A DNA stretch of 29,045 nucleotides from Acidobacteriota bacterium. GTDB lineage: Bacteria; Acidobacteriota; Vicinamibacteria; Vicinamibacterales; JAKQTR01. Each line of letters starts with the position of its first letter. Position 1 is the first letter of the stretch. Position numbers and translations under genes: made by a program. Under the pieces are notes generated by a model. It searched no databases. It was not told where the DNA came from and saw only the letters and a program-made list of their open reading frames with translations. The DNA lies in NCBI GenBank assembly GCA_026393735.1, contig JAPKZP010000326.1:1-29045 (forward strand). Direction: 5' to 3'. This document shows, in pieces, positions 966-28,479 of the stretch.

Positions 966-983
966 ACGATTGACCTCGTGACG

Positions 984-1992: not shown

Positions 1993-1995
1993 CCG

Positions 1996-12428: not shown

Positions 12429-12478
12429 AAAACCTCTCCCGGAGAGGTTCGTCGGGAAAAACCTCTCCCGGAGAGGTT
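12429..12478. repeat. Two direct copies of a 21-bp unit containing a 19-bp palindrome (REP-like or operator)
   Basis: AAAACCTCTCCCGGAGAGGTT at 12429-12449 and 12458-12478, separated by 8 nt. The core AACCTCTCC-C-GGAGAGGTT is a perfect inverted repeat. Confidence 0.85.
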
Positions 12479-12489
12479 GTGGTTGCATC

Positions 12490-13467
12490 TCATCCCTGCG
12501 CACGCGGGTGCGCCTCCAGGTAGGTGCGAGCGGTCTGGAGGCAGCGGAACGCATGCTCGGCGTATCCGAGTTCCTTGACGCGTGCCAGGTGCGGAATCTC
12601 GAGCGAATACGGTACCTGGGGCATGCGGTTGAGGATGGCGGCGATGTCGATGGCGCCCTCCCCCGGGTAGAGGCGTTCCTCGCGGGCCGTGTGGATCAGC
12701 CCCTCGTTGGTGGTTGGAATCTCGGCCGGCGCATCGCACACGTGGGCGAAGTGGAACCAGTCGCGGGGCACCGCGTCCAACTCGGCGAGCGTCACGCGCG
12801 AACGTGAGAAGTGGAGCGTGTCGACCAGGACGCCGCAATTCGTGCGCCTGGCGTCGCGCAGCAGCGCGACCGCGTCCGCCAGGTTCTTCCCCCCGGCGGC
12901 GAAGGGGACGAACTCGCATTCCACCGTCAGCCCGAGCGGCTTGGCGAGGTCACACAGCTGGGCGAAGCAATCGACGGCGAAGTTCCGGTCCGTCGTCCAG
13001 TTGTTGGCCAGCACGTACTTGCCGCCCAGTTCGGCCGCCGTCTCCATCGCCGGCAGGTACTTCTTCGGATCGAGCCCGTCGGAGATCCTGGCCACCTCGA
13101 TGTCCTGCAGCTTGAGACCGGTGCTGGCCAGCGCGGTTTTCGTCTGCCGCAGCATGTCCTTGTTGTTCGCCAGGTCGTAGTTGGGTTCACCGGCCAGGCC
13201 CATGTAGATCAGGCGGTAGCTGACGAAGTCATAGCCGGCGCGCGCGGCGATATAGGTCATTTCGGGCGGCGCGCATCCGAGCACCGTCAGGTGTGCCAGC
13301 GAGAACTGCCGCTTCGCGGCTCCGCCCGTGCGCTGGCCGGGCTGCCGTCCTCCCTGCGGGGATGCGGACAGCATCCGTGCGCCGCCCAGACCGAACGCGG
13401 CCGTCGCCCCCGCAACGGCCGACGCCTGCTTGAGGAAGTCGCGGCGCTGAATCCTCTGACTCGACAT
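12490..13467 (-). CDS. Tat-exported sugar phosphate isomerase/epimerase family protein (xylose isomerase-like TIM barrel)
   Basis: Twin-arginine motif RRDFLK (13429-13446) followed by an Ala-rich h-region. Metal-type motifs ECEFVP, VDTLHF, HVCDA, RLYPGEG.ID and SLE. GGAG RBS. Confidence 0.85.
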   Translation of the reverse strand: MSSQRIQRRDFLKQASAVAGATAAFGLGGARMLSASPQGGRQPGQRTGGAAKRQFSLAHLTVLGCAPPEMTYIAARAGYDFVSYRLIYMGLAGEPNYDLANNKDMLRQTKTALASTGLKLQDIEVARISDGLDPKKYLPAMETAAELGGKYVLANNWTTDRNFAVDCFAQLCDLAKPLGLTVECEFVPFAAGGKNLADAVALLRDARRTNCGVLVDTLHFSRSRVTLAELDAVPRDWFHFAHVCDAPAEIPTTNEGLIHTAREERLYPGEGAIDIAAILNRMPQVPYSLEIPHLARVKELGYAEHAFRCLQTARTYLEAHPRAQG

Positions 13468-13564
13468 CGGTCGACTCCGTTCCTGACATGGGAGGGCGAA
13501 TGCGGTTCCCATCCTACGTCAGCTGTGTGGATGGAAGGTCTGGGCCGGCACGCGAAACGGCGTG

Positions 13565-13588
13565 TGTTACGGTTCACCTACCGTTACT
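13565..13588. promoter_or_regulatory. Operator-like palindrome copy A
   Basis: TGTTACGGT-TCACCT-ACCGTTACT, about 100 bp upstream of the Tat isomerase gene. Confidence 0.7.
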
Positions 13589-13698
13589 CTCCGCAGACGT
13601 CCATCATGCTCGAGCACATGGCGACGGCCGACGACCATGCCAAGTCGGCGCAGCATCTCCGGTTCGTGGCGGAAGAGGTTGGCGTCGGGATCCGCTGA
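13588..13698 (+). pseudogene. Orphan 3' fragment of a TIM-barrel sugar isomerase/epimerase-like gene
   Basis: Reads SPQTSIMLEHMATADDHAKSAQHLRFVAEEVGVGIR*. This resembles the xxMLEH strand plus terminal helix of this family. It has no upstream coding region, and the stop converges on the TonB receptor stop. Confidence 0.5.
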
Positions 13699-13702
13699 CG
13701 GC

Positions 13703-15970
13703 TCAGGGCAGGTAGAACCGGATCCCGACCCGCACGGTGCGAGGCCAGCCGATGGTCCGGGTCGGCGTCCGGCCCGTGTCGTATCCGGTATCGAAGAGGT
13801 TCTCGACGGCACCAAACACCTGCAGGCGCCGCACAACCTCGCGTGTCGCGGACATGTCGACGACCACGAACCGCCGCAACTCCAGCGTGTTCATGTCGTC
13901 TTCGAACTGGGCGCCGCTCATCCGCGCAGCCGCCGTGAGGGTGACCCACCGGGGCTCGACCCACGTCACCGACGCGCCGAACTGGTACCGCGGCACCTGC
14001 GGGATGAGATTCCCGGCAATTGCCGGTTGCGCCGGCGTCTTCACGAATCGCGAGGCGGTCAGCACTGCCAGGCCTGCAACTGTCAGCGTCGGGTGCGGCC
14101 TCAACTCCGCTTCGATCTCCAGTCCGGACGCCCGGACGGTATCGGTGTTCTGACGTTCCCTGACAGTCAGGGTCGCGCTCGACTGAATGGTCACGTTGGT
14201 GACGGCGTCCGAGAGGCGAGTGCTGAAGCCCGTCACGCGAAGAGACGACGATCGGCGCGACAGCAGCAGCCCGCCCTCGACGCCGACGAAGTGCTCGGGC
14301 GTCAGCAGCGGGTTGGCGTTGGTCAGGGTGTTTCCAGCGCGGAAACCTCGGTACAACTCGTTCAGCGTGGGCGTCCGATGCCCTCCGTAGGCCATGCCAT
14401 GGACGGCCAGCGGGTCCTTCGGACGCCACGCCACGGAAACCCTCGGGCTGAGGAAGTTCGCCCCGTCCCTCTGCGGCGTCATGTCCCGCGACGCCGGCCG
14501 CCACAGATCCACTCGCATGCCCGCGTTCAGGGAGACCGAGGACCGAATGGCCAGGTTCACCCGTGCGTAGACGGCTCCGGCATCCTCGTCGCCACCGGTG
14601 ATGATGGGCCCGGTTGCCACACCGGACACCGAGTACCGCGTCTCGCGTACTTCTGCGTTGGTCCGGTGGCCTTCGGCGCCGACGATCAAGGACTGGCGTC
14701 CGAACGGTCGGATCCACTGGGCCGACCCGTTCATGAAGGTCGTGGGAATCCGCTGATCACTGGTGAGACGTTCAACGTCCCTCGATGCGCTGATCGACGA
14801 GAATGTCTGGAAGTACGACTGCGCGCCGCCGCCGGCCTGAACCGTCCACAGGCCGCCGCCGGCCGAACCGGCCGCCGACGCCGCGAACTGGTGCCAGGAG
14901 GTGTCGTTGCGTTGCAGCGGCGTGCCGTTTCCCCGCTTTTCCGTCTGCACCGAGGCTCGCAGGTCAGCATGCCAGGTGTCCGCGGCGTAGCCGAGCGCCA
15001 GGAATTGCGAACTGGATCGGCTCGTCGCAGGCACATCCACGGGGCCCCGCTCCTCAGGCGCCACGACCGGCGCTCCGTCCGTCTGGAACCACTCGGCTGC
15101 GCCCGCGGCGGTCCACCCTCGCCGCCGCCCGCCTGCGAACAACGAGCCGCGAACGGTTCCGCGTGATCCGCCATCGACGCTGACGCGCACGCGGGGCCGG
15201 TCGCCGCCGAAGGTCAGCATCTGGACCACGCCGCCAAGCGCATCCGCCCCGTACAGGTCGCCGGCCGCACCGCGCACGACCTCGATGCGCTCAATCGCGG
15301 CCACCGGCACACGATCCCAGTAGACCCAGCCGCCGAAGGCATCATTGAGCGGGACGCCGTCGGCGAGGACGACCGTCCGGCTGGCACCCGACGACGACAA
15401 TCCTCGGAGCGTCACGCCCTGCGTGGTCGGGTTGGCGACCCGGGAAGATGTCCGGCGAAACAGGCTGAAGCCCGGCGTCGCGCGCAACACGTCGTCGATG
15501 GCGCCGGCTGCCGCGTTCGAGATCTGGCTGGATGTCAGGACGGAGACGCTCGACGGATCCCTGAGGGCTTGTGTGCCCCGCGACGCCGTGACTGAGACCG
15601 CTTCGGCGAAACCAGCCGGGTGGAGGACCACCCTGACGCCAGCGACGTCGGCCGGGCCGATCAGGACCGACTCAATGGCGTCCGCGAAGCCAAGCGCGGC
15701 AGCGCGGAGCACGTACGCCCCCTGCGGCAGGCCGGCCGCGGCAAACGTCCCATCCGATCCGGCCTTCACGTCGACCGCCCCCGCGGGCGCGGGCTCGATG
15801 CGGATCGATGCCGCCGGCACCGGCGCGCCGGACGTGTCGACCACGATGCCGGAGACCGTGTGCCTGTCGGCGGACTGCCGAACGGCAGAAGCGGCCGGAA
15901 CAGAGACGAGCGTGGCCGCGAGGACGGCGATGATGGAGACGACCCACGCCGCCCGGAAGTCTGGCGCCAT
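13703..15970 (-). CDS. TonB-dependent receptor (BtuB-like) with N-terminal carboxypeptidase-regulatory-like domain
   Basis: Signal peptide; VSGIVVDTSGAPVPAA...G.Y.L; plug motifs LRATPG, VTLRG, VLADGVPLND and IERIEVVRG...LYGADALGGVV; barrel motifs RTPTLNELY and VENLFD. Confidence 0.92.
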   Translation of the reverse strand: MAPDFRAAWVVSIIAVLAATLVSVPAASAVRQSADRHTVSGIVVDTSGAPVPAASIRIEPAPAGAVDVKAGSDGTFAAAGLPQGAYVLRAAALGFADAIESVLIGPADVAGVRVVLHPAGFAEAVSVTASRGTQALRDPSSVSVLTSSQISNAAAGAIDDVLRATPGFSLFRRTSSRVANPTTQGVTLRGLSSSGASRTVVLADGVPLNDAFGGWVYWDRVPVAAIERIEVVRGAAGDLYGADALGGVVQMLTFGGDRPRVRVSVDGGSRGTVRGSLFAGGRRRGWTAAGAAEWFQTDGAPVVAPEERGPVDVPATSRSSSQFLALGYAADTWHADLRASVQTEKRGNGTPLQRNDTSWHQFAASAAGSAGGGLWTVQAGGGAQSYFQTFSSISASRDVERLTSDQRIPTTFMNGSAQWIRPFGRQSLIVGAEGHRTNAEVRETRYSVSGVATGPIITGGDEDAGAVYARVNLAIRSSVSLNAGMRVDLWRPASRDMTPQRDGANFLSPRVSVAWRPKDPLAVHGMAYGGHRTPTLNELYRGFRAGNTLTNANPLLTPEHFVGVEGGLLLSRRSSSLRVTGFSTRLSDAVTNVTIQSSATLTVRERQNTDTVRASGLEIEAELRPHPTLTVAGLAVLTASRFVKTPAQPAIAGNLIPQVPRYQFGASVTWVEPRWVTLTAAARMSGAQFEDDMNTLELRRFVVVDMSATREVVRRLQVFGAVENLFDTGYDTGRTPTRTIGWPRTVRVGIRFYLP

Positions 15971-15975
15971 CGACG

Positions 15976-16479
15976 TCAGGATCCGCTGAAGACGATGCTT
16001 GCCTTCTCGCGTTCGAGCTTCTCGGCGTCGATCCCGTCGACCCTCTTCAGGTCGTCGAGCGTTGCAAACGCGCCATGGGCGTCGCGGTAGCCCACGATGG
16101 CCCCGGCTTCCTTTTCGGACACGCCGAGCACGGCCTGCATCTCTTCGGCGCCGGCCTTGTTGACGTTCACGAGCCCGAAGTAGCGGGTCATGTACGCCGC
16201 AATCACCTTCGCCTCGTCGTCGGTGGCCGACGCCCCCTTCGCACGCATATCGGCGACCGAGGTCTTCCAGTCCTTCTGCGTCTTTCGTTTTTCGACGGTC
16301 GCGCGGACATCGTGGCAGCCGCCGCAGAGTTCCATCAGGGTCGATCGGCCCTCGGCTTCGGGGAACACGACCTGTCCCGTCTGCGCGGCAACTCCGCACA
16401 CGAGTGCAACGACGACGCCCAAGACGCCGAACGCGAACGGTTGGAGTCGACGCAACATGCTGCCAGGTCTGTGGGTCAT
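15976..16479 (-). CDS. Exported monoheme cytochrome c fused to a ComEA/PsbU-like helix-hairpin-helix domain
   Basis: Signal peptide; CGGCH (16312-16326); W..SV.DM.AKGA (probable Met ligand); then VNVNKA..EEMQAVLGV...A.AIV.YR..HG.F.TLDDLKRVDGI. The stop is 5 nt before the TonB receptor start. Confidence 0.85.
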   Translation of the reverse strand: MTHRPGSMLRRLQPFAFGVLGVVVALVCGVAAQTGQVVFPEAEGRSTLMELCGGCHDVRATVEKRKTQKDWKTSVADMRAKGASATDDEAKVIAAYMTRYFGLVNVNKAGAEEMQAVLGVSEKEAGAIVGYRDAHGAFATLDDLKRVDGIDAEKLEREKASIVFSGS

Positions 16480-16585
16480 GACTTCACTGCCAGAGTGACG
16501 TGTGCAGAAACGGCGCCAGGCCCGTGCCAGGGAATCGGGGCCCAGTTCTTCAGAGAGTACAAGTCTAGCGGGAAGCCTCGCCCAG

Positions 16586-16609
16586 TGTAACCGTCCGCGT
16601 ACCGTTACA
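16586..16609. promoter_or_regulatory. Operator-like palindrome copy B
   Basis: TGTAACCGT-CCGCGT-ACCGTTACA. It overlaps the MFS stop codon and lies about 107 bp upstream of the cytochrome c-HhH start. Confidence 0.75.
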
Positions 16610-17771
16610 CCCGTGCCGTGACCCGCCCGACGCGGCCGTCCGGCGGCAGCAGCATCGTGAGCGCCGCCGCGAGCGCCGGCAGCCACGCGATCATCTGCAG
16701 CGCCCGCGTCAGGCCGAGCGCATCGCCCACGAGTCCGACGAGCGGGACCGCCATTCCCCCCGCCCCCCACGCGACCCCCAGCATGAGCGACGAGACGGTG
16801 CCCGTGGCGACGGGCGCGATCATGTGCGCGTAGGTGACGTTGACCGGCAGCGTCGATCCGAGGAAGAAGCCGCCCAGTGTGAGCGCGACGAGCGCCGCCG
16901 GGCCGTGGAGCGACGCAGCGGCCAGCTGCAGCGGCACCGAGAGGAGGAGCGACCACACCATCACACGCCGCGAGCCAAATCGATCGGCCACGGGCCCGCC
17001 TGCGAGCCCGCCGACGCTACCCGCGAGCACGTAGATGCCCATGATGCCGCCTGCCGCGCCGATGGAGATTCCTCGCCCCGTCAGCAGCACCGGAAGAAAC
17101 GTCGAGAATCCCAGCGAGACGACGGTGCGAATCACGACGGCGCCCCACAGCAGCGCCAGGGGCCTTGCATAGGGCCGGAGCGCGGCATAACCCGCGTGCG
17201 CAACGCGCGGGCCGACGGTATCACGGGGAATGGCCCGCTGAATCCAGGCAATCGCGAGCAGCCCGGGTACGGCGAGCAGCGGTGTCCAGTGAAGCCCGAA
17301 GTACTGCACGTAGGGGGCGAAGATCAGCGGCCCGAACGCCCCGCCCACCGCGCCTCCGGTCACGTGGACCGACATGGCGAGCCCGGGGAATCGGCCGCCG
17401 GCTTTGTGCACGAGGCTGGCGGACGCCGGATGGAACGCGGCGTTGCCCAGGCTGCCCACGACCATGATCGTCCCCAGCATCATCGGCGACGTGGCGACAC
17501 CCGCCAGGCTCAGGACGGCGACCGCCAGGAACGGGCCGACAATCACCAGCTGCGCCGCCCGCCCGCGGTCGGCCAGCGGGCCGAACACCATCTGGCCGGC
17601 CGAGTTCGCCAGCATGAATGCCATGGCGATGGTGCCTGCCTGCGCGAGTGACAGGCCGAGGCTGGGGATGAACATCGGCAGCAGCGGGGCGTAGATGCTC
17701 GTGTAGGCGTCGGTGACGAAGTGCGAGGCCGACAACGCCAGCACGGCAGGAGGCACTTTCCGTTCGCTCAA
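16605..17771 (-). CDS. MFS transporter (Fsr/fosmidomycin-resistance-like)
   Basis: About 12 hydrophobic segments; HFVTDAY, GPLADR, AAFHP, GGPVADRFGSRR. TTG start with a GAGGTG RBS at 17780-17785. Confidence 0.88.
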   Translation of the reverse strand: MSERKVPPAVLALSASHFVTDAYTSIYAPLLPMFIPSLGLSLAQAGTIAMAFMLANSAGQMVFGPLADRGRAAQLVIVGPFLAVAVLSLAGVATSPMMLGTIMVVGSLGNAAFHPASASLVHKAGGRFPGLAMSVHVTGGAVGGAFGPLIFAPYVQYFGLHWTPLLAVPGLLAIAWIQRAIPRDTVGPRVAHAGYAALRPYARPLALLWGAVVIRTVVSLGFSTFLPVLLTGRGISIGAAGGIMGIYVLAGSVGGLAGGPVADRFGSRRVMVWSLLLSVPLQLAAASLHGPAALVALTLGGFFLGSTLPVNVTYAHMIAPVATGTVSSLMLGVAWGAGGMAVPLVGLVGDALGLTRALQMIAWLPALAAALTMLLPPDGRVGRVTARV

Positions 17772-17820
17772 CGCTTGCCCACCTCGAAAGTTTCCGGTCC
17801 GCTGGAGTTCGCGGGCGGGA

Positions 17821-17844
17821 TGAAACCGTCCCCGTACCGTAACA
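17821..17844. promoter_or_regulatory. Operator-like palindrome copy C
   Basis: TGAAACCGT-CCCCGT-ACCGTAACA in the divergent MFS/iolB intergenic region. Confidence 0.75.
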
Positions 17845-17884
17845 CGTCCGCGAACCTCCGGCTTTCTGGCATGATCAGACGCCA

Positions 17885-18739
17885 ATGGACAAGCACCACG
17901 GCTTCCTGTTCAGGCCAGCGGCCATCCCGCCGAATCAGTCGGGCGTCCTGCTGTCGGTCACGCCCGAAGACGCCGAATGGGACACCACCGGGTTCTCTGT
18001 TCGGCGGCTGGTGGCTGGCGATGTCTGGACGGGGAACACCGGGTCTCACGAAGTCGCCCTCATCGTCCTCGGAGGCCGGCTGACGATCGACTGGGGCGAG
18101 GGCGCGCGGTCCATCGGGCGGCGTGCGCACGTCTTCGCCGGCTATCCCTCTGCCGTGTATCTCCCTTGCCGGACGTCATTCGAGGTGCGCGCCGAGACAC
18201 TCGTCGAGCTGGCCGAGGCTCGCGCGCCGTCGCGGATGACGCTGCGCCCCCGCGTCATCGCCCCGGCAGACGTCGAGTGTGAGATTCGCGGCGGCGGGAA
18301 CATGACGCGCCAGATCTCCCGCATCATCAAGCCCGAGCACGAAGCCGACAGGCTGATGATCAACGAGGTCTACACGCCGCCGGGCAACTGGTCGAGCTAT
18401 CCGCCGCACAAGCACGACACCCACAACCCGCCGGCCGAGCTCGCGATGGACGAGTTCTACTACTTCCGGACCGACCACCCCGACGGTTACGGGCTCCTGC
18501 GGCAGTACAACGCTGCGGGCACCGAGGACGACACGGTGACGATCCACGACGGCGACCTGGTGGCACTGCGGAAGGGCTACCACCTGGTAGCAGCCCCACC
18601 GGGCTACAGCGTCTACTACCTGGCCGTGCTCGCCGGCGTCACGCGGTCCATGGCGGCCAGCACCGACCCGCGGTACGTGCACCTGACGAAGAACCAGGGA
18701 CCGCCGGATCCGAGGGTGCCCCTGTTCGGCCGCGACTAG
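17885..18739 (+). CDS. iolB: 5-deoxy-glucuronate isomerase
   Basis: Motifs EVALIVLGG, RGGGNMTRQI, EVYTPPGNWSSYPPHKHD, EFYYF and GYH..AAPPGY..YYL, characteristic of IolB. Confidence 0.88.
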   Translation: MDKHHGFLFRPAAIPPNQSGVLLSVTPEDAEWDTTGFSVRRLVAGDVWTGNTGSHEVALIVLGGRLTIDWGEGARSIGRRAHVFAGYPSAVYLPCRTSFEVRAETLVELAEARAPSRMTLRPRVIAPADVECEIRGGGNMTRQISRIIKPEHEADRLMINEVYTPPGNWSSYPPHKHDTHNPPAELAMDEFYYFRTDHPDGYGLLRQYNAAGTEDDTVTIHDGDLVALRKGYHLVAAPPGYSVYYLAVLAGVTRSMAASTDPRYVHLTKNQGPPDPRVPLFGRD

Positions 18740-18740
18740 C

Positions 18741-18895
18741 GAGCAGACCGCGATTCGGGATCGTCGGATGCGGGTGGCCGAGGTGCTTCCCTTTTGCCCG
18801 CAGGCACATCACCGAAGCTCAGCCGAGGACGGAAGGGAACACCTCGGACAGGACCCGCGGCCGACGCACCGGCGACCCCGAATCGCGGTTTGCTT
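18741..18895 (+). ncRNA. Candidate structured RNA or palindromic element (long nested hairpin), family unknown
   Basis: Outer stem 18741-18759/18877-18895 has 19 bp including 2 G-U. It continues inward as TCGTCGG/CCGGCGA. Inner stems are CCGAGGTG/CACCTCGG and TTCCCTT/AAGGGAA, with an apical TGCC-CGCA-GGCA hairpin. Confidence 0.5.
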
Positions 18896-18932
18896 TCCAA
18901 CCCTGCCCTGCTCCGGGGCTCCCTGCTCAGCC

Positions 18933-18956
18933 GGCTACCGTGGCGACACGGTAACA
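18933..18956. promoter_or_regulatory. Operator-like palindrome copy D
   Basis: GGCTACCGT-GGCGAC-ACGGTAACA, about 100 bp upstream of the lipoprotein esterase. A -10-like CATAAT lies at 18984-18989. Confidence 0.7.
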
Positions 18957-19057
18957 TCCCCGTTTCCAAAGCCGTCGTGCACGCATAATCGCGCTCGTGC
19001 GGGGCTGCATGTCCGTGGTGGCCGTGCAGGCCCGCGTGGAAAGGCTGCGATCCATCC

Positions 19058-20698
19058 ATGGCGCGATTGACGCGACTTGTCGTGGCTATGCTGCTGGTCC
19101 TTCTCGTCGCCGGGGTCGGCGGTTGCAGGCGATCGGATCCACCGACACTGATTCAGACCGACAGCGGGATGGTGAATGGCCGCGTGCTCGACTCCGGCGT
19201 GAAGGCGTGGCTGGGCGTGCCGTTCGCGAAGCCGCCGGTTCGGGAGCTGCGGTGGAAAGAGGCGCAGCCGATCACGTGGAAGGGCGTGTACAACGCCGAT
19301 CGCAAGATGCCGGAATGCATCCAGGTGCTGCGCCCGCACAACATCAACCACTACTTCGGTGAGGAGGCAACCAGCGAAGACTGCCTCTACATGAACATCT
19401 GGTCCCCGGCGGGATCGGATGCGAACGCCAGGCTGCCCGTCATTGTGTTCATCTACGGCGGCGGCGGAACGCTCGGGTCGTCCGGGATGGCGAACTACGA
19501 TGGTGAACAGGTCGCGAAGCGCGGCGCCGTCTTTGTCAACTTCAACTACCGGGTCGGTGTGCTCGGGTTCATGGCGCATCCCGAACTGACCAAGGAGCAG
19601 GGAGGCCATTCGGGCAACTACGGCTACCTCGATCAGAGCGCGGCCTTGAAGTGGATTCAGCGCAACATCGCCGCGTTCGGCGGTGACCCGGCGAAGGTGA
19701 TCATCTCGGGCCAGTCGGCGGGCGCCGGGTCGGTCGCCCAGCAGATCTTCAGCCCGCGCTCCCGCGGCCTGTTCCGCGGCGCCGCGATGTTCAGCGCCTG
19801 CAACTACACCACGTCGAACACACCGCTCGCCGAGGCCGAGGCCACCGGCCTCGAGATTCAGAAGCAGTTGGAGGCGGCCAGCCTCGACGACATGCGCCAG
19901 ATTCCGGCCGATCGGATTCTGGCGATTCAGAACGAATTCCAGGTTGGACGAGCCGTCACCGGCGTTCGCACGAGCGGCGTCATCGACGGCTACTTCATGC
20001 CGGACACGAAAGAGGCGATCCTGAAGGCCGGCGGCGCCTCCGACGTGCCCATCATCGCCAGCTTCACGCACGACGAAGCGAACAGCCCCCTGAAGGCCGC
20101 CAAGACCGTCGCGGAGTACAAGGCTGCCGCAAAAGAGCTGTTCAAAGACGCCGCGGAGGAGTTCCTCACGCTCTACCCCGTCGCGTCGGACGCGGAGATT
20201 CCGGCGGTGGCCCAGGAGGCTGCCAACGACGGCGCTGGCCTGTTCAACTCGTGCGCATGCGCGAGCCTCCAGGCGCAGTACCACAAGTCGCCGGCCTTCC
20301 TCACCGTGTTCTCACGCAAGCACCCCTACGTGCCGGGCGTCAAGATCGCCGACCAGGATACCGCCACGATTGGCGCGTACCACACGTCCGAGGTGCCGTA
20401 CTACTTCGGCACGCAGGACGCGTACAACCTGTTCCGTCCAACACGGAACTGGACCCCGTGGGACCGGGAACTCTCGCAGAAGATGACGGCCGTGCTCGTG
20501 GCGTTCGCCAGGACGGGCAATCCGACAACGGCGGGTGTGCAGTGGCCGGCCTGGTCGGCTCAGGCTGAGCGCTACGTCAACTTCGGCGACACAATCGCCC
20601 TGGAAACCGTGAACCGCGCCCGGCTGGATTTCATGGCGAAACACCGGCCGGCACCGATGTCGCCGGGCGGCGCGCCGCGGAGATTCCAGCGCGACTGA
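19058..20698 (+). CDS. Type-B carboxylesterase, probable lipoprotein, full catalytic triad
   Basis: Lipobox-like VAGVGG-C; SEDCLYMNIW, FIYGGG, GQSAG (Ser), THDE (Glu) and GAYHTSE (His at 20381-20383). Confidence 0.92.
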   Translation: MARLTRLVVAMLLVLLVAGVGGCRRSDPPTLIQTDSGMVNGRVLDSGVKAWLGVPFAKPPVRELRWKEAQPITWKGVYNADRKMPECIQVLRPHNINHYFGEEATSEDCLYMNIWSPAGSDANARLPVIVFIYGGGGTLGSSGMANYDGEQVAKRGAVFVNFNYRVGVLGFMAHPELTKEQGGHSGNYGYLDQSAALKWIQRNIAAFGGDPAKVIISGQSAGAGSVAQQIFSPRSRGLFRGAAMFSACNYTTSNTPLAEAEATGLEIQKQLEAASLDDMRQIPADRILAIQNEFQVGRAVTGVRTSGVIDGYFMPDTKEAILKAGGASDVPIIASFTHDEANSPLKAAKTVAEYKAAAKELFKDAAEEFLTLYPVASDAEIPAVAQEAANDGAGLFNSCACASLQAQYHKSPAFLTVFSRKHPYVPGVKIADQDTATIGAYHTSEVPYYFGTQDAYNLFRPTRNWTPWDRELSQKMTAVLVAFARTGNPTTAGVQWPAWSAQAERYVNFGDTIALETVNRARLDFMAKHRPAPMSPGGAPRRFQRD

Positions 20699-20835
20699 GC
20701 GGGACCACGGCCGTCAACTGATGATCCTCGTTGCTCACTGCAGTACGAGACATTCGACCACATGGCGTTCAACGGAAAAGTGTTCGCCACGTTCGCGTCC
20801 GGGACGACGAAGTAGTCGGACCGAGGAGGATGAGC

Positions 20836-21984
20836 ATGCGATACGTTCGAGTCGGCGCCGGCATTGCGGTGGCGTTGTTCCTGGCCTTCGCGGTCAACGT
20901 GGGGACGCAGGGGCCAACAGGTGCACGCGAGGTGACGGTGAACCCGGACGGCAGCGTCTCGGTCAAGAACGCCGTCGTCCCGCTGCCCGCGATCATGAGC
21001 GAGGGCAGCAAGAAGGTCCTGATGCGCGCCACGGCCACGGAAGGGCCGGGGGCCCCCGTGCCGGTGCCGAGCGGCATCCCGGACATGGCCGAGGTTCGGC
21101 GCGTCTACAACGAGAACCTGAAGCCGGTCGTCGAACACATGAAGGCCGTGTTCCCGGTCGACATCGAGGAAACGACGATCGCGGGAATCTCAGCCGCAAT
21201 CATCACGCCCAAGGGCGGCGTGCCCGAGAAGAACAAGAACCGTCTGTTCCTCAACGGACCGGGCGGCGGGTTCCGCACGGGCGTACGGGGCAATGGGCTG
21301 CTGATCAGCATCCCGGTCGCCGCCACGCTCGGCGTGAAGGTGGTGACGATTACGTATCGCCAGGGGCCGGAGTACAAGTACCCGGCGGCCAGCGAGGACA
21401 TGCTGAAGGTGTGGGACTACTTCACCAAGACCTACAAGCCGGAGAACATCGGTATGGTCGGGTGTTCTGCCGGAGGCAGCCTCGTCACTCACACGACGGC
21501 GTTCCTCATCAAGCAGGGGCGGCCGACCCCGGGTGTGCTCGGGGTCTATTGCGCGGGGCTGGGTTCTACGGGATCGGGCGACTCCCAGTTCATGAGTGCC
21601 CTGTCGGTCACGAACGCGCCGCAGGGCATTACGCAGGTGGCGCCAACGCCACCGGCTGCCGCAGCCGCCGCTGCGGCCACACCGGCGCAGCCGCAGCCGT
21701 CGTACATGGATGGCGCGGACCGGAACGACTTCGGCGTCAACCCGACCGTGGACGAAAAGCTGCTGGCGAAGTGGCCGCCGACCATCTTTTTCACCGGCAG
21801 CCGCGACTTCGCGGCGAGCGGAGCCCGCTACAGCTACCGCAAGCTGATCAAGGTGGGGATCGACTCGCAGATCATGGACTTCGATGGGCTCTACCACGGC
21901 TTCATGACCAACCCTGACTTCCCCGAAGCTCAGGAAGGCTACAAGATCGCCGCGGCGTTTTACGACAGGCACCTCGGGAGGTAG
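20836..21984 (+). CDS. Exported alpha/beta hydrolase, HSL-like (Abhydrolase_3) esterase
   Basis: GAGGAGG RBS and signal peptide; NGPGGGF at the HGGG position; YRQGPEYKYPAASED, GCSAGG, GSRD and LYHGF. Confidence 0.85.
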   Translation: MRYVRVGAGIAVALFLAFAVNVGTQGPTGAREVTVNPDGSVSVKNAVVPLPAIMSEGSKKVLMRATATEGPGAPVPVPSGIPDMAEVRRVYNENLKPVVEHMKAVFPVDIEETTIAGISAAIITPKGGVPEKNKNRLFLNGPGGGFRTGVRGNGLLISIPVAATLGVKVVTITYRQGPEYKYPAASEDMLKVWDYFTKTYKPENIGMVGCSAGGSLVTHTTAFLIKQGRPTPGVLGVYCAGLGSTGSGDSQFMSALSVTNAPQGITQVAPTPPAAAAAAAATPAQPQPSYMDGADRNDFGVNPTVDEKLLAKWPPTIFFTGSRDFAASGARYSYRKLIKVGIDSQIMDFDGLYHGFMTNPDFPEAQEGYKIAAAFYDRHLGR

Positions 21985-21990
21985 GACGCA

Positions 21991-22019
21991 GGGTGGCGCC
22001 GCTCCCGGCGGCGCCACCC
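21991..22019. terminator. Hairpin between convergent genes, probable bidirectional terminator
   Basis: Perfect 12-bp stem GGGTGGCGCCGC/GCGGCGCCACCC with a 5-nt loop. U tracts are weak. Confidence 0.6.
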
Positions 22020-22067
22020 GCTACTCGGACGCGTCACGCGGACGCGCCGTGGTGCTCCTGCCCTGCC

Positions 22068-23903
22068 TCATTTCAGAGGCGCCTTCGGCAGCGCGAACGC
22101 CACGATCTTGGAACCGGATGGCGACGCCAGATAGCTGCCGCCGCCCGCCGCCGTCACGACGTACTGCCGGCCGTCCTTCCCCAGAAACGTGACCGGGACC
22201 GAGTGCGCGCTGGCCTCGAGGGTGGTTTCCCACAGCATCTTGCCGGTCTTCGACTCGAACGCGCGGAACCGTGCGTCATTGGTCGCGCCGATGAAGATCA
22301 GCCCGCCCGCGGTGGCGATCCCGCCTCCCAGGTTGAGCGCCCCCGTGTCGGGAACGCCCTTCGCCTTCAGGGACGCAATAAACCCGATGGGCACCTTCCA
22401 GGCGATGTCGCCGCGATTGACATCCACCGCCACCAGTTCACCGGAGGGCGGTACCTGGCAGGGAACCTTCGTATCCGGGTTCCAGAAACGGCCGACGGGC
22501 CCTCCAAATGGCGTGGTTCTGGCGTAGCTCGGCTTGCCGGTCTGCCGGTCGGGCCGCGGTTCCATCCGGGCGACCTGGCCGAGGTTCATCACGTTGGTGA
22601 ACACCAGCCCGAGAGACGCGTCGTAGGCGATGCCGTTCCAGTTCCCCCCGCCGATCGTGCTGGGGAATGTCAGCATCGTCCCCTCGGTGCCGGCTGGCGT
22701 ATACGGCCCCTTGGTGAACATCCCGTTCTTGTCCCACAGCTCCTTGCAGTAGGCGGTCTGCTCGGGCGTGAGGGTGCCGAAGTCCTTCGCCGGGTCGAAG
22801 TCGATCCGTCCGAGCGGCGCAGGCTTGAGCGGGAACGGCTGCGTCGGCGATGACGCCTCGCCTGGGACCGTGCTCTGCGGGACGGGCCGTTCCTCCATGC
22901 CGAACACGGGCTCGCCGGTGACGCGGTCGAAGATGAACAGCTGCGCCATCTTCGTCACGACAGCCACGGCAGGTATGGTCTTGCCGCCGCGTCTCACGTC
23001 GATGAGTGTGGGCGCCGCGGGAAGGTCGTAGTCCCAGAGATCGTGGTGAACCAGTTGCTGGTACCACTTCAGCTTGCCGGTCATGGCGTCCAGGGCGACG
23101 ACCGAGTTCCCGAAGAGGCCAGCGCCCTTGCGATCCCCGCCGTAGTAGTCCGAGGTCGGCGATCCGATCGGCGCAAACACGAGACCCCGGGCCTCGTCGA
23201 TCGTGAAGTACGACCACATGTTGGTGCCGGACCGGTTCTTCCAGCTGTCACCTTCCCAGGTCTCGATGCCGGGCTCTCCGGGCCTGGGCACCGTGTGGAA
23301 CGACCAGAGGAGCTTGCCCGTGCGCACGTCCCAGCCGCGGATGTCGCCGTAGAGGCCGTAGCTGGGCGCCTGTTCGCCGTTGTTGCCGCCGGTGATGATG
23401 AGGCCCTTGTAGATCGCCGGGGGCGAGAAGAGCCCGATCCGCCCGTCCACATCACCTCGGATGCCCTGGGTCAGGTCGACGGCGCCGTTCTCGCCGAAAC
23501 CCGCGGCCGGCGTGCCGGTCTTCGCGTCGAGTGCCAGCATCTGTGGGCCGGTGCCGAAGATCACTCGGGCAGGTGTCGTCGCATCTCCGGCCCAGTACGC
23601 CACGCCGCGGCGGCTGACGGGGGCCGGCGCGGTGAACGCCCATACGACCGCGCCGGTCTCGGGCTCGAGCGCCATCACCTTCGCGCCGGCGGTGACGTAC
23701 ATGGCCCCGCCGACGACGATGGGCGTCACCTCCAGGCCGGTGGCGCCGGTGTCGATCGTCCAGGCAACCTGCAGGGTCGCGACGTTTGCCGGCGTGATCT
23801 GCTTCAGGGGCGAAAAACGCTGGCCGCCCAGGTCATGGTCGGGATGCACCCAGTCACCAGGACCTTGAGCGGCCAATGTCGAAGCCGCCAGCCAGCCGGC
23901 CAC
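22068..23903 (-). CDS. PQQ-dependent dehydrogenase (glucose/quinate family, no membrane anchor, no cytochrome domain)
   Basis: RFSPLKQITPANV..L.VAW, EVTPIVV, RRGVAYW, GDIRGWDVRTGKLLWSFH, HHDLWDYDLPA, GG.NW.G, LNLGG.IATAGGL.FIG and GRQYV. Confidence 0.92.
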   Translation of the reverse strand: MAGWLAASTLAAQGPGDWVHPDHDLGGQRFSPLKQITPANVATLQVAWTIDTGATGLEVTPIVVGGAMYVTAGAKVMALEPETGAVVWAFTAPAPVSRRGVAYWAGDATTPARVIFGTGPQMLALDAKTGTPAAGFGENGAVDLTQGIRGDVDGRIGLFSPPAIYKGLIITGGNNGEQAPSYGLYGDIRGWDVRTGKLLWSFHTVPRPGEPGIETWEGDSWKNRSGTNMWSYFTIDEARGLVFAPIGSPTSDYYGGDRKGAGLFGNSVVALDAMTGKLKWYQQLVHHDLWDYDLPAAPTLIDVRRGGKTIPAVAVVTKMAQLFIFDRVTGEPVFGMEERPVPQSTVPGEASSPTQPFPLKPAPLGRIDFDPAKDFGTLTPEQTAYCKELWDKNGMFTKGPYTPAGTEGTMLTFPSTIGGGNWNGIAYDASLGLVFTNVMNLGQVARMEPRPDRQTGKPSYARTTPFGGPVGRFWNPDTKVPCQVPPSGELVAVDVNRGDIAWKVPIGFIASLKAKGVPDTGALNLGGGIATAGGLIFIGATNDARFRAFESKTGKMLWETTLEASAHSVPVTFLGKDGRQYVVTAAGGGSYLASPSGSKIVAFALPKAPLK

Positions 23904-23910
23904 TGTTGTC

Positions 23911-24924
23911 CTACTTCACCGCCGCCGGCGCCACGGGCGCGGCGGGCTTTGGCCGCGGCGTCGCATCAGCCTGTGTCATCCCGAGGACCCACTTGATCGC
24001 CTCGAGATACATGTGCTGGACGTCCACGCGGTCCCAGATGGCGGAGTCGTGCCCCATTCCCGAGACGAAGACGCGGCCCTTGCCGTGGTTGCGGACCCAC
24101 GCCTGCGGCATGTCGTTGGCGCCCCGATGGACGTTCGGGTTCGCCATGTCGAACTTGCTGGTATCGAGATTCATCAGTACGCGTGAACTCTCCCAGGAGA
24201 AGTCCTTGACCTGGATGAACTCGTCTCTGAAGGTGAAGACTGGCGGAAATTCCTTCATCCCGGGGAAGTTCTCATCGAGGACGACGACCGGTCCCTCGAC
24301 GCTGCCCCAGGGGTGTCCGTCGTACCTGGCGCCGATCATCTCCCCGAACTCCGGGAACCGCGCGAACGCGTTGAATGACGTGTGCGCCGACACGAAGCCC
24401 TTCCCGTCGTCCTTCACGAAGGAGACGAGGTCGGTCATCTGCTGCTGCGTCAGCGGAATCTCACGCTGGCCGTAGAAGAAGATGGCGTCGAACGAGTCGA
24501 GGTTCTTGCCGACCGGCCAGTCGCGGCCGTCGGCGTTGACCGTGAGCTTCTGCTTGGTGATGAACTGTGGATCCGTCCGGATGTACGCGTCATAGAGGCC
24601 GGACTCGCGGCCGATCCGGTAGATGGTGGCCAGCGCGTTGTTGACGGACTCGTGGTAGGCCCCACCGCCCGTGAACTCGCCCCAGAGGAGCACCTGCTTC
24701 CGAACGACGCGCGGCGCCCCGCCGCGGCCGCCGGCTCCCCGCTGTGGCCCGGCTCCGGGCGGCCCCTGGGGCGGCGCGCCCTGGGGTGACGCCGTCGGCG
24801 GGCCCTGCGGTGGCCCCGCCGGTGGCGGCCCCTGTGACAACACAACGGCGGCTCCGAGCACGGCGCACACGGCGACGGCGAGGATGAAACGCATCCCATG
24901 GGACTGCTGACCGAAAAGCTTCAT
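23911..24924 (-). CDS. Exported ThuA-domain protein (class I glutamine amidotransferase-like fold)
   Basis: Signal peptide and Pro/Gln/Gly linker; YHES, LDSFDAIFF, GKGFVSAH, EMIGARYDGHPW, FRDE, W.R..GKGRVF...MGHD...W. Confidence 0.85.
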   Translation of the reverse strand: MKLFGQQSHGMRFILAVAVCAVLGAAVVLSQGPPPAGPPQGPPTASPQGAPPQGPPGAGPQRGAGGRGGAPRVVRKQVLLWGEFTGGGAYHESVNNALATIYRIGRESGLYDAYIRTDPQFITKQKLTVNADGRDWPVGKNLDSFDAIFFYGQREIPLTQQQMTDLVSFVKDDGKGFVSAHTSFNAFARFPEFGEMIGARYDGHPWGSVEGPVVVLDENFPGMKEFPPVFTFRDEFIQVKDFSWESSRVLMNLDTSKFDMANPNVHRGANDMPQAWVRNHGKGRVFVSGMGHDSAIWDRVDVQHMYLEAIKWVLGMTQADATPRPKPAAPVAPAAVK

Positions 24925-24940
24925 GTTGCCCTTCCCTCCA

Positions 24941-24980
24941 GAATAAACGAACCCGCCCCTGGTCACCAGGGGCGGGTTCG
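24941..24980 (-). terminator. Intrinsic terminator downstream of the Oar-like TonB transporter
   Basis: Perfect 16-bp inverted repeat 24948-24963/24965-24980, followed on the minus strand by TTTATTC. Confidence 0.8.
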
Positions 24981-25017
24981 GGGGACTGACACGAACGATT
25001 GAGACGGACGAGCTACG

Positions 25018-26354
25018 TCAGAAGGCGAACTTCACGGCCAGCTGCATGATGCGCGGGTCCTGGGCCGACAGGATCTTGCCGAAGTTGGCGTTGTTGAGCG
25101 CCGTCGTGGGCGCGTTGAGGTTCACCCAGTTGACGACGTTGAAGACTTCCCAGCGGATCTGCAGGGCGCGAGCCGCCCCCATCTTGAAGGTCCGCGAGAT
25201 GGCCAGGTCGTTCGTGAACCGCGAGGGATTCACGATGGTGTTCGGAAGCAGCGTGCTGAGCGTTCCCGCGGCCGGCTGTGTGAAGGACGCCGGATTGAGA
25301 TAGAAGCCCGCCGTGCCGTCGCCGTACGGATCGGCACCGGATACCTGGACGGCCCTCTGGCCGCCGACGCCTGTCAGTGCGACGTCAGGGCCGGCCGTCA
25401 CGGTCGCCCGGTTGCCGCTCTGCCACCGGACGATCGGCGCGATCTGCCAGTAACTGATGATCGCCCCGAAAGCGCCCTGCACCTTCGGGCTCGTCGCGAT
25501 CATGGAGAGGTTGAACACGTGGCGGCGGTCCGAGTCGCAGTACGCGTAGTCCGCGCCCGGATTGTTCGGGTCGACGGTAGTCGGGCCCGTCAGCTCGGTG
25601 GTGGCGGGGTCGGCCATGCACTTCGACAGCGTCCAGTTCCCCATCACGCTCCAGCCGTCCTTCAGACGCCGCTGTGCCGTCAGGAGCATGCCGGCGTAGT
25701 TGGCGCGGCCCGTGTCAACCAGTTGCCCGATGGTGCCGTAGTACTGCCCGACGGCCTGGTTCTTCAGGTAGAGCGTCCGGCGCTGGTTCGTGTTGCCCGT
25801 GGTTGCGCCGGCCATGTAGACGGCGGGATTCAGCTCGACGCCGATCCACAAGTGGCTCGTGTGGTTGCCGAGGTAGCTGCCGCCGAAGAGCCAGTCGCCG
25901 AACTGGCGCTGGACGCTGATGTTCCACTGATGCAGGACCGTGTTCTTGGTGTCGAGCGGCGCGTTCACGTAGACGCCGAACGCCGGGAACGGCTGCGTTG
26001 CCCACCCCGTCTCGAGTGCCGGCCACGGGTTGCCGCCCGGGTAGCCCGTCCAGGGATCGGTCAGCCCATTGATGGCGGTGTTGGCGACGCTGACCTGGGC
26101 GCCCCACGGCGGGTTGTTCGCCCAGCGCGTGTTGAAGAACAGGTGCGGCGTGTCGTAGAACATGCCGTACGCGGCCCTCACGCTCATCTTGCCGTCGGTC
26201 CCCGGGGACCAGATCATGCCCATGCGAGGCGCGAACTGCGTCCACTGGCTGTTCATGACCTGCTTGCCCGGCATGCCGGTGTCGCCGGCGAACAGCAGGC
26301 CCGCAGGCGCCTGCGGATACTCCGTGCTCTTCACGCCTGCGTCGAACCGGGCGG
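25018..26354 (-). pseudogene. 3' part of Oar-like TonB-dependent transporter (second frame)
   Basis: ARFDAGVKS..YPQAPAGLLF.GD, FAPRMG..W, R.AYG.FYD, SDRRH.F, WEVFNVVNWVN and a terminal aromatic residue (QLAVKFAF). Confidence 0.85.
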
Positions 26355-28189
26355 CCGAAGTTGAACGTGAAGTTGGGCCTGATCTTCCAGTCATCCTGCA
26401 CGTAAGTGCCGAAGTAGTCGTTGTGGTCGAAGTCCCACACCGCGTTGCCCTGGACGAACGCGCCGCCCATGGCGCCCACCATCAGATCGGCGAGCCCGAG
26501 GCCCGTGACCGTTCCGTTGATCGAGAACCCGCCGTTGGTCGGCCGGTTGTTCACGGTCTCGATCGAGGTGTGAATCCAGTTCACGCCGGCGGAGAACTGA
26601 TGCTTGCCTTTGATAAGGTCGAAGTCGTCAGCGATCTGGAAGCCCTTCGAGTTGAAGAACCCGGGGTTGGTCCCGCCCGTGCCGATGGAGAACCCGCCCG
26701 TCACCGACAGGTTCGTGAACCCTGGCTGCGGGCTGAAGACGTTGCTGCCCAGTTCCTTCGGCGTGAAGTACGCCTCCATCGTCCGGTCGTTGATGGTCTT
26801 GTTGAACGTCACGTGGAGCGCGTTTACCGAGGTCGACGACAGGACCCAGTTGTGCCCCACCACGAAGGAGTGGACCGTGTTGGTCTGGCCCGTGCGGCTC
26901 ATGGTCAGGACGTTCTTCCCGTCGTACACGGACGGAAGGTCGTAGTGGGCGTACATGTACCGCGCCGTCAGGGTCTGGCTCTGGCTGATGTTGTAGTCAA
27001 CCTTCGACAGCATCTGATGCTCGGTGTTGTCGCCGGGAATGCCCATCACGATCTTGCCGCAGGGGTCGGTGGCCACCGGCACGTACTTCAACAGGGCAAG
27101 GGCCACCGGGTTGAACGTCTTGGGGTCGATCGTGTTGTTGACGTACGGCGCCTTGAGGGTCTTCGCTCCGGTCGAGTTGCAGGCCGCCGACGCGAAGGCC
27201 GTGAAATCGCCGTTCAGCATGGCCTGCGTCGGTGCGAACACGGTCGTCGTCGGCGGGGTGGTCTTTTCGATCTTCCCCTGATAGGCGCCAAAGAAGAAGA
27301 CCTTGTCCTTCTTGATGGGCGCGCCAATTGTGCCGCCGAACTGATTGCGCTTCAGGTTGTCGCGCGTCGTGGCGAAGGCGTTCCGGGCGTTGAAATGGTA
27401 GTCGCGCAGGAACTCGAACACGTTGCCTTTCACCGTGTTCGTTCCGGACTTCGTGACGATGTTCACGGCGGACGCCGCGTGGTGCCCGTAGCGCGCGGGA
27501 AGGGCGCTCGATTCGACCTTGAACTCCTGGAGCGCGTCCGGGAAGAGCGTCGGCAGGTTCAGGTTGTTGAAGGGGTCGTTGTGCGTCCCGCCGTCCATGA
27601 TGTAGGTCATGCCGTTCGCCTGGCCGCCGGCGACGGAAATGGTGACGGTGGGGTAGTTCTTGTTGGTGTTCAGGTCGCCGGCCGGCGCGGGCGTCGACAG
27701 CCCGGACAGGAAGATCAACTCCGTCGCCTGGCGGCCGTTCAGCGGCATCTCGACGACGGTCTGGTTGTTGATGACCGTGCCGACGCCGGTCGACTTCGTC
27801 TCCACCGTCATGGCGTCGGCGGTGACCGTGACCGTCTCATCCAGCGTCCCGACGCCCATCGTGACGTCGAGGGTCGGGTTCGTGTTCACCTGCAGGACGA
27901 TGCCCGTCTTGACGTAGGTGTTGAACCCCTGCAGCACTACCTTCAATTCGTAGGGACCGACGGGAAGGTTCGGAAGCGTGTAGCTGCCGTCCGATCCGGT
28001 GAAGACGGTCCGGATCATGCCCGTGTCCGTCTTCTTGACCGTGACCTCGGCGCCGGGCAGAACTCCCCCGCTCGAGTCCTTCACGACACCCGAGATCTGG
28101 GTTCCGCTGACCTGCTGCGCCCAGACGGGGCCGCACACCAGGAACGAGAGTAGGAACACCGCGAGGAAGATACGAAGCGGCCTCTTCAT
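26355..28189 (-). pseudogene. 5' part of Oar-like TonB-dependent transporter, frameshifted at about 26355
   Basis: GGAGG RBS and signal peptide; ISGVVKDSSGGVLPGA, LPVGPY, MPLNGR, DALQEFKV, A.YG, NIVTKSGTN, FEFLR...NARN, RNQFGGT.G.PI.K.K.FFF and YVQDDWKI..N.T.NFG, after which homology is lost. Confidence 0.88.
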
Positions 28190-28291
28190 CATCACCTCCG
28201 AAGAAACGAGCATGCAGGAATCCGCCTTCACAACCGGACGCGTCGGTTACGCCAGAAGGACCGTACTACCCCCGTAACTCGGCCACAACGA

Positions 28292-28315
28292 TGCAACGGT
28301 GCCACTACGGTAACA
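28292..28315. promoter_or_regulatory. Operator-like palindrome copy E
   Basis: TGCAACGGT-GCCACT-ACGGTAACA, about 103 bp upstream of the Oar-like transporter start. Confidence 0.75.
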
Positions 28316-28415
28316 GCCCCGCCCTCCCACCGGGCCGGTGTGGATAATCGGCACGCCACGGACGCCTGGCAACCTGCCCTCATGCGGTCGGGAACTACGG
28401 TTATTTGGATTCGCG

Positions 28416-28431
28416 GATACGATATCGTATC
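28416..28431. promoter_or_regulatory. Perfect 16-bp palindrome upstream of the HMG-CoA lyase gene, candidate repressor site
   Basis: GATACGATATCGTATC is self-complementary and sits in an AT-rich intergenic stretch 48 bp before the ATG. Confidence 0.6.
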
Positions 28432-28479
28432 GCTGAGCAGATCGGAAGCAGGATTGTCTTCATGAAAGGACTACTAAAG

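Follow-up and report, generated by a model that had tools for sequence, protein, structure and literature searches.

A conserved 24-bp palindrome beside the promoters of a nutrient-uptake and breakdown cluster in Vicinamibacterales, and its candidate winged-helix/TPR activator

We have analysed a 29,045-nt stretch of DNA (the window) that forms one whole contig (C369; GenBank JAPKZP010000326.1) of a metagenome-assembled genome from the acidobacterial order Vicinamibacterales (G000; 821 contigs, 4.21 Mb, 67% GC), and that carries five copies of the palindrome TGYWACSGT-N6-ACSGTWACA. Comparison of sequences among relatives confirms this palindrome as a real, conserved regulatory site, lying just 5' of the promoters of a gene cluster for nutrient uptake and breakdown in Acidobacteria of soil and freshwater. 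Furthermore, a protein that recurs in the same cluster, which we call F4, has a predicted DNA-binding head, and on balance we favour a model in which an F4 dimer binds the palindrome and activates the cluster from about -51. G-numbers (such as G012 and G017) denote the genomes compared, C-numbers contigs and L-numbers loci.

Results

An operator confined to one gene cluster

The motif matches the window at 13565, 16586, 17821, 18933 and 28292. Each of the five copies has at most one mismatch on its better strand and a spacer of 6 nt, in agreement with a preliminary description of this DNA that had reported the same five copies and the constant spacer. Scores in the list are those of the position weight matrix introduced below, and no strand is assigned to a palindrome.

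13565-13588: operator copy 1, TGTTACGGT-TCACCT-ACCGTTACT; 26.7 bits; 98 nt 5' of the start of a xylose-isomerase-like gene (13467).
16586-16609: operator copy 2, perfect consensus; 29.7 bits; 107 nt 5' of the start of a cytochrome c-HhH gene (16479).
17821-17844: operator copy 3; 29.0 bits; common to the divergent MFS and iolB promoters.
18933-18956: operator copy 4; 26.1 bits; 102 nt 5' of a carboxylesterase start (19058).
28292-28315: operator copy 5; 31.6 bits; common to the promoters of a divergent Oar-like TonB-dependent transporter gene and an HMGL-like gene; 100 nt to the transporter start at 28192.

Copy 2 overlaps the end of the MFS gene by 5 bp, which take in the stop codon. The preliminary description had also placed four copies about 100 bp 5' of a start, which the distances above bear out, and one between the divergent MFS and iolB genes, where copy 3 indeed lies, 41 nt from the iolB start (17885) and about 50 nt from that of the MFS gene (17771). 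A degenerate sixth copy that it had proposed at 28257-28278 was not upheld, as this stretch reaches no more than 3.9 bits and coincides in part with the predicted -10 element of the Oar promoter.

Counted on each strand, the motif has 10 matches in the window against 0.10 expected, and none of 100 shuffles reached 10. The genome scan that had been proposed as a check, made here with a position weight matrix from 18 sites, gave six sites in the 4.21-Mb assembly at 23.3-31.6 bits, all of them in one cluster and with a clear gap to the next best match (13.8 bits). The sixth site (C758:1271-1294) is located between an aldehyde dehydrogenase gene and an IolD-like gene, and contigs C758 and C202 continue the gene cluster of the window with genes for aldehyde dehydrogenase, an IolD-like thiamine pyrophosphate enzyme, an MFS transporter, DUF2271, ApbE and F4. 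The regulon of G000 is one supercluster split over contigs. The earlier proposal that the motif defines a local regulon has therefore held, the motif being confined to one gene cluster per genome.

Conservation of the palindrome

A pattern search found the motif, at no more than one mismatch, in 30 of 301 Vicinamibacterales genomes. The reversed pattern, used as a control, matched about 15 genomes, almost always with a single match, and genomes with several sites (G074, G108, G266, G017, G012 and G293) were seen with the real pattern only. Conservation upstream of orthologues, which had been put forward as a test of the motif, was found across genera and in at least nine families of the order. 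In the loci that were fetched, the sites always stand 5' of the same gene families: on one side the Oar-like transporter with ThuA-like and pyrroloquinoline quinone (PQQ) dehydrogenase genes, and on the other a citrate-synthase-like or HMGL-like gene with aldehyde dehydrogenase and IolD-like genes. Further families headed by a site include a TonB-dependent receptor, the xylose-isomerase-like protein, IolB, type II dehydroquinase and others.

We collected 58 sites at 21 bits or more, and the 50 sites of at least 25 bits gave the refined motif TGTWACSGTRnC|GnYACSGTWACA, with an operator information of about 32 bits. Positions A5, C6, G8 and T9 never vary, conservation extends to T3, R10 and C12, and 37% of the arms have A at W. 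Sequence beyond the 24 bp adds no information. Although the inner ACSGT pentamers lie 11 bp apart, they are self-complementary, and with its outer TGTW/WACA arms the site as a whole is an inverted repeat.

Outside Vicinamibacterales, 400 genomes of the phylum gave only single matches at the control level. Two genomes of other acidobacterial orders, G388 (C1:128446-128469) and G557 (C1:7091014-7091037), have good palindromic matches on both strands that are possibly genuine. Within the genus of the source genome, eight genomes (G001-G008, several of them incomplete) had neither a motif match nor an F4 orthologue; G005 had no F4 match at all and the seven others had matches only at the level of paralogues.

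The site keeps a fixed distance to a predicted -10 element

To describe the promoters, we took 73 flanks, each of 160 nt, from the site edge toward each adjacent outward-facing gene. Their AT content peaks sharply at +25..+32 from the site edge. Against a background of 0.41 per position, 18 flanks have a TAnnnT that begins at +27 and 6 have one that begins at +28; for starts anywhere within +25..+29 the count is 33 of the 73, compared with 0-2 in ten control windows. The longer pattern TGnTAnnnT begins at +24/+25 in 13 flanks. An enrichment of TTG is seen at +4 from the site edge. Only nine of the 73 flanks have a TTG at the -35 position. The -10 elements come in two flavours, GATAAT/CATAAT on the aldehyde dehydrogenase/lyase side and TGnTAnnnT on the receptor side, and the variety of the latter (TAGGGT, TAGCGT, TATTGT and others) shows them to be extended -10 elements and not additional half-sites. 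Several citrate-synthase-like genes (at L076, L080, L083, L064 and L060) and iolB of the window start about 7-13 nt past the hexamer, as leaderless mRNAs would show. This supports the hexamer as the -10 element and suggests that leaderless mRNAs are common at these Vicinamibacterales promoters.

In the window, the gene-facing sides of the sites carry one of six such hexamers, and the gene-less sides carry nothing similar.

16554-16559, minus strand: predicted -10 element TACTCT, at +27..+32 from the edge of copy 2, placed from the profile of the 73 flanks.
17789-17794, minus strand: weak -10-like element GAAACT of the MFS gene.
17870-17875, plus strand: predicted -10 element CATGAT of iolB, preceded by TGg; the ATG is 10 nt downstream, so that the mRNA would be near-leaderless.
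18984-18989, plus strand: predicted -10 element CATAAT of the esterase operon.
28260-28265, minus strand: predicted -10 element TACGGT of the Oar operon; TTGTGG (28283-28288) occupies the -35 position.
28343-28348, plus strand: predicted -10 element GATAAT of the HMGL-like gene.

The gap from the site to the -10 element is 26-27 nt, and the site overlaps neither the predicted -10 nor the predicted -35. We infer that the site spans about -62 to -39, ending 3 bp before a mostly poor -35. Both the fixed position relative to promoters and the possible activator site suggested in the preliminary description are in keeping with this geometry, since a fixed upstream spacing and a poor -35 hexamer are features of activator-dependent promoters. 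For such promoters the absence of a consensus sigma-70 promoter is also expected, and none was found in 13400-19200. Judging from the predicted elements, one palindrome often feeds two divergent promoters.

Two other assignments of the site were rejected. In a MerR-type promoter the site would lie between the -35 and -10 elements, and here the -10 follows 26-27 nt after the site. The reading as an extracytoplasmic function sigma promoter (TGTAAC as -35 and CGT as -10) showed a spacing misfit on direct inspection.

F4 recurs with the motif

The preliminary description had noted that no regulator gene is in the window. This stands for the window itself but not for the genome, where the search for a co-occurring regulator led to F4, a family of about 590 aa that recurs in motif clusters. 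In G000, the F4 gene occupies about 949-2616 (minus strand) of contig C202 and stands where the cluster reaches its far end. F4 is inside the motif-bearing cluster at every locus examined, usually as the final gene of the site-headed aldehyde dehydrogenase/IolD operon. Its orthologues score above 520 bits with the head covered, whereas paralogues score below 300 bits and match from about residue 130 onward only. Intact orthologues are found, for example, in G017 and G236, and the genomes G236 and G104 are closed or nearly so.

Among the 301 genomes, 28 have an F4 orthologue and 30 the motif, and 23 have both (Fisher p 1e-23, for genomes that are not independent). The motif exceeds chance essentially only in F4-positive genomes. 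Three of the F4-positive genomes that lack a motif at one mismatch or fewer (G210, G080 and G021) carry degenerate sites of more than 20 bits beside F4, with ACAGT as an operator variant; G220 has a site at 14.5 bits only, and in G287 the contig begins inside the operon and the upstream region is missing. The seven genomes with the motif alone are close to the control expectation, except perhaps G013 and G022. A Pfam search of about 60 open reading frames near the sites (in the window, G012, G017, G036 and other loci) found no classical transcription factor. F4 is singled out because of its predicted DNA-binding head, and not by its phyletic distribution alone.

A predicted winged helix in front of TolB-like and TPR domains

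In F4, Pfam detects TPRs only. However, its N-terminus, with the sequence LKEYxxGVQVF...DPRTDPxVRVQARRLRxxL...LPKGGYxPxF, is reminiscent of OmpR-type domains in helix 2, helix 3 and the wing. AlphaFold2 models of F4 (predicted local distance difference test score 84 at full length and 81.5 for residues 1-125) contain three helices and a wing formed by a hairpin, with an alpha/beta TolB-N-like domain after them and TPRs behind that. In the models the head has the fold of a winged helix (helices 34-48, 57-65 and 78-96, the last corresponding to the recognition helix, and hairpin 103-118). Residues 11-25 form a helix in the model, and the four-stranded N-terminal sheet of OmpR-type proteins is absent. 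No transmembrane segment separates head and sensor in the model.

Comparison of the head with VIA-align gave top hits that are almost exclusively OmpR/PhoB-type DNA-binding domains. PrrA was best (Z 7.5), others being CpxR, GlnR, ArlR, VicR, PhoP, CadC, KdpE, AfsR (Z 5.8), TcpP and ToxR, and about 20 of the top 30 were OmpR/PhoB, CadC, ToxR or AfsR, with Z of 5-7.5 over 82-90 residues. With full-length F4, Foldseek against the AlphaFold database/Swiss-Prot matched HilA, YgeH and a rhizobial cyclase-TolB-like-TPR protein; residues 35-576 align to the whole of HilA (E 4e-15), with a template modelling score of only 0.45-0.48 and 16% identity. The full-length model shares the architecture of HilA, being soluble, with a winged-helix head and TPRs and without a receiver domain.

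For a census of the head domain, an alignment of residues 1-125 was run against a library of 1.84 billion proteins, counted as representative clusters at 50% identity. At E up to 0.001 it matched 20,775 clusters; a stricter limit of 1e-10 left 16,760, mostly from soil and freshwater metagenomes. Pfam-A has no match to the domain. The domain also occurs fused before PD40 propellers or TPRs, the position that CadC-type winged helices usually occupy in these phyla, and after Ser/Thr kinase domains. Exactly one protein of G000 carries it, and that is F4 on C202.

A model for activation by F4

In the model that we favour, F4 would be a cytoplasmic, local activator composed of a divergent OmpR/ToxR-type winged helix, a TolB-N-like middle and C-terminal TPRs, with the TolB-like/TPR part presumably acting as the inducer sensor. 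A symmetric dimer would contact the two TGTWACSGTR arms and, placed at -62 to -39, upstream of a weak or missing -35, would recruit RNA polymerase. One copy could drive two divergent promoters because the site is two-fold symmetric. As F4 is last in a site-headed operon in most relatives, its own synthesis would be positively autoregulated. The regulon would comprise uptake across the outer membrane (two TonB-dependent receptors), processing in the periplasm (PQQ dehydrogenase, ThuA-like protein, a Tat-exported xylose-isomerase-like enzyme and esterases), import through the inner membrane (MFS) and breakdown in the cytoplasm (IolB, IolD-like protein, aldehyde dehydrogenase, and HMGL-like or citrate-synthase-like lyases).

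A broader proposal, to which we give somewhat less than an even chance, is that the F4 head typifies a large family of divergent winged helices that Pfam does not recognize, and that such proteins form dimers through their TolB-like/TPR parts on 24-bp symmetric sites, in place of the head-to-tail binding of OmpR, and activate two divergent promoters at once from a single site centred near -51.

Discussion

Evidence against F4 and rival explanations

Several results weigh against F4 as the activator that binds the palindrome. At the level of sequence, Pfam PF00486 (Trans_reg_C) does not match F4 even at E up to 10, the head had no match in a sequence-profile search of the PDB, and neither Pfam nor NCBIfam recognizes the N-terminal domain. 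The hhalign comparison of the head with 11 Trans_reg_C domains of G000 was weak (E 0.015, probability 3%), though the alignment does pair the expected recognition helix and wing. The NCBIfam model for HilA/EilA (NF009037) gave 40.8 and 47.8 bits against a cut-off of 589, in the middle and TPR part only. At the level of structure, Foldseek of the head against the PDB had no hit at E up to 0.001, and the VIA-align scores are middling, although the hits are mutually consistent, so that the models lend the fold moderate support. Furthermore, domains of the OmpR family normally bind direct repeats, in tandem and spaced at about 10-11 bp, and the operator is an inverted repeat; its centre near -51 is non-canonical for class I or class II activation of the CRP type. 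In G000 itself, the F4 frame is without the conserved last 35 or so residues and runs into the next gene, giving a fused open reading frame of 849 aa (C202, about 67-2616, minus strand); that next gene encodes an MTA/SAH-nucleosidase-like (methylthioadenosine/S-adenosylhomocysteine) protein with its own lipoprotein-type signal peptide. The lesion may be a deletion or a misassembly, and the system is possibly damaged here, as the Oar gene too looks frameshifted. Finally, the co-occurrence of F4 with the motif equals that of any cluster gene, and G013 has a plausible site without an F4 orthologue. These last two points, together with a role for the head that rests on a predicted fold with middling Z-scores and without sequence-family support, equally suit a rival explanation, in which another transcription factor, encoded elsewhere, binds the palindrome and F4 is a scaffold or sensor that does not bind DNA. 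However, such a factor would need to follow the cluster in its patchy occurrence across nine families, and no other DNA-binding family was found in the roughly 60 site-flanking reading frames from many genomes. The architecture of F4 parallels that of HilA, and the single copy of the head domain in G000 matches the single motif. We regard a separate factor as rather unlikely.

The palindrome might instead be the operator of a repressor, F4 or another protein, that blocks polymerase or its alpha C-terminal domain/UP-element contacts until an inducer is present. Most local regulons for sugar or cyclitol catabolism are controlled by repressors, for which palindromic operators are typical, and the site ends just 3 bp from the -35 position. 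However, it stops short of the -35 and never overlaps the -10 or the start-site region as a classical operator would, and in unrelated operons, whose -35 hexamers are poor, it keeps its distance to the -10 to within 1-2 nt, whereas repressor sites are usually variable in position and overlap core elements. No local repressor gene (LacI, GntR, TetR, IclR or RpiR) was found in about 60 reading frames around the sites of G000, G012, G017 and others, and we consider repression distinctly unlikely. It is very improbable that the palindrome consists of two extended -10 elements placed face to face for divergent transcription. The half-site with W as T, TGTTACSGT (for example 13565-13573), does fit the extended -10 pattern TGnTAnnnT, with the invariant A5 and T9 at the two most conserved, key -10 positions. 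This likeness is probably a coincidence, though it could matter for polymerase competition: more than a third of the arms have A at W, sigma-70 contacts do not explain the invariant C6 and G8 or the conserved T3, R10 and C12, and a separate, better -10 stands at +27 on exactly the gene-bearing sides. In addition, the leaderless start codons come after that downstream -10, and a genome carries the motif in a single cluster only. A chance match or a repeat of the REP (repetitive extragenic palindromic) or MITE (miniature inverted-repeat transposable element) type has only the repetition itself to recommend it. Elements of this kind would have many dispersed copies with conserved flanks; here all six copies sit in one cluster, chance predicts 0.1 for the window, the flanks are not conserved, and the motif is conserved upstream of orthologues across families, which leaves this explanation with a negligible probability.

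Relation to known regulators

Among reviewed proteins, HilA of Salmonella pathogenicity island 1 and YgeH of E. coli are the best full-length structural matches to F4. Like F4, they are soluble one-component proteins with an N-terminal winged helix, C-terminal TPRs and no receiver domain, and HilA activates the operons of one locus. F4 differs from HilA by its extra TolB-N-like domain, a 24-bp palindromic operator, targets in catabolism and transport, and its occurrence in Acidobacteria. With the OmpR/PhoB proteins it shares a similar predicted DNA-binding fold and a site of about 20-24 bp beside a poor -35, the ACSGT pentamers here being 11 bp apart; OmpR occupies around -60 to -40 at site F3 of ompF. 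Unlike those proteins, F4 has no receiver and no phosphorylation, its site is two-fold symmetric, and an N-terminal helix replaces the four-stranded sheet. CadC, ToxR and TcpP, and also the acidobacterial winged helix-PD40/TPR proteins, similarly combine a DNA-binding head with a TolB-like or TPR sensor. However, in contrast to CadC, ToxR and TcpP, the F4 model has no transmembrane segment, and sensing would be cytoplasmic.

The SARP/AfsR regulators are likewise pathway-specific activators with a winged helix and helical repeats. SARPs bind direct heptamer repeats that overlap the -35, and F4 lacks their BTAD and NB-ARC domains. The repressors IolR, LacI and GntR resemble the present system in that a local regulon for cyclitol or sugar catabolism and transport has a palindromic site, but no such regulator gene is near any of the sites, the core promoter is not overlapped, and the -10 spacing is fixed. 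As we read it, the F4 system works like an upstream activator of the HilA, CadC or OmpR type while lying outside those sequence families, as the Pfam and NCBIfam tests fail.

Significance

Acidobacteriota are among the most abundant soil bacteria and, to our knowledge, almost nothing is known about their transcriptional regulation. A literature search with the half-site strings returned only primers and unrelated sequences, and a full-text keyword search on acidobacterial winged-helix/TPR regulators returned nothing relevant, with no paper on the motif or on the protein family. The operator and its regulon, the bidirectional design of the promoters and the unannotated head domain thus appear to be undescribed in the literature searched. 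What emerges is a very specific operator and a delimited regulon that joins the TonB-dependent uptake of a putative cyclitol- or quinate-like substrate to its oxidation in the periplasm and the cleavage of its ring in the cytoplasm. The promoter architecture can be read from the DNA: -10 or extended -10 elements, several genes without a leader, and sites used in both directions. The candidate regulator head has been missed by current domain libraries, yet the metagenomic protein clusters that have it number in the tens of thousands. If F4 were confirmed as the activator, annotation of the family and motif-based reconstruction of regulons in uncultured lineages would follow directly. If the broader proposal of a divergent head family were true, this would be the first triplet of regulator, operator and regulon for Vicinamibacterales, and a handle on the regulons of uncultured Acidobacteria.

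Target genes and further observations

The gene map of the window was made from Pfam matches. The putative targets of the operator copies are as follows.

8387-13467, minus strand: target operon 1, with a xylose-isomerase-like TIM barrel protein bearing a Tat signal, COesterase and DUF5916.
13703-16479, minus strand: target operon 2, cytochrome c-HhH (15976-16479) and TonB-dependent receptor.
16605-17771, minus strand: target gene 3, MFS transporter; start TTG 17771 or GTG 17759.
17885-18739, plus strand: target gene 4, IolB/KduI.
19058-21984, plus strand: target operon 5, carboxylesterase (COesterase) and Abhydrolase_3.
22068-28192, minus strand: target operon 6, Oar-like TonB-dependent transporter, ThuA-like protein and PQQ dehydrogenase.
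28462-29045, plus strand: target gene 7, HMGL-like lyase, truncated by the contig end.

In relatives, the genes headed by a site also include type II dehydroquinase (L060:12041-12538), O-methyltransferase (L051:18621-19355), an AIR-carboxylase-like protein (L075:2959-3957) and a split transketolase (L016:3587-5400). Such genes hint at a carbocyclic substrate of the quinate/shikimate or cyclitol type, and we infer that the regulon serves a cyclitol- or quinate-like compound.

The Oar-like transporter (25018-28192) is in two reading frames, with an apparent frameshift near 26353-26376; the Pfam domain OMP_b-brl_4 is divided between them, positions 1-387 falling on one side and 396-838 on the other. 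Near the break, at 26267 and 26354, independent Logan contigs end or start, and loose ends occur at 26304; the break may be an assembly artefact rather than the mark of a pseudogene.

The predicted 5' untranslated region of the HMGL-like gene contains a perfect 16-bp palindrome, GATACGATATCGTATC (28416-28431), 31 nt 5' of the start. It is unique in the genome (elsewhere, at most 3 mismatches) and was not seen in the fetched loci of relatives.

The sequencing runs that match the window stretch are of DNA only. In four of four metagenome runs, the summed contig depth over 18350-18884 is 4-5x that of neighbouring DNA. This segment spans the 3' end of iolB and a 155-nt structured region, and it is represented by many short contigs, with variants at 18400, 18794, 18831 and 18859; it seems to be common to several organisms or copies.

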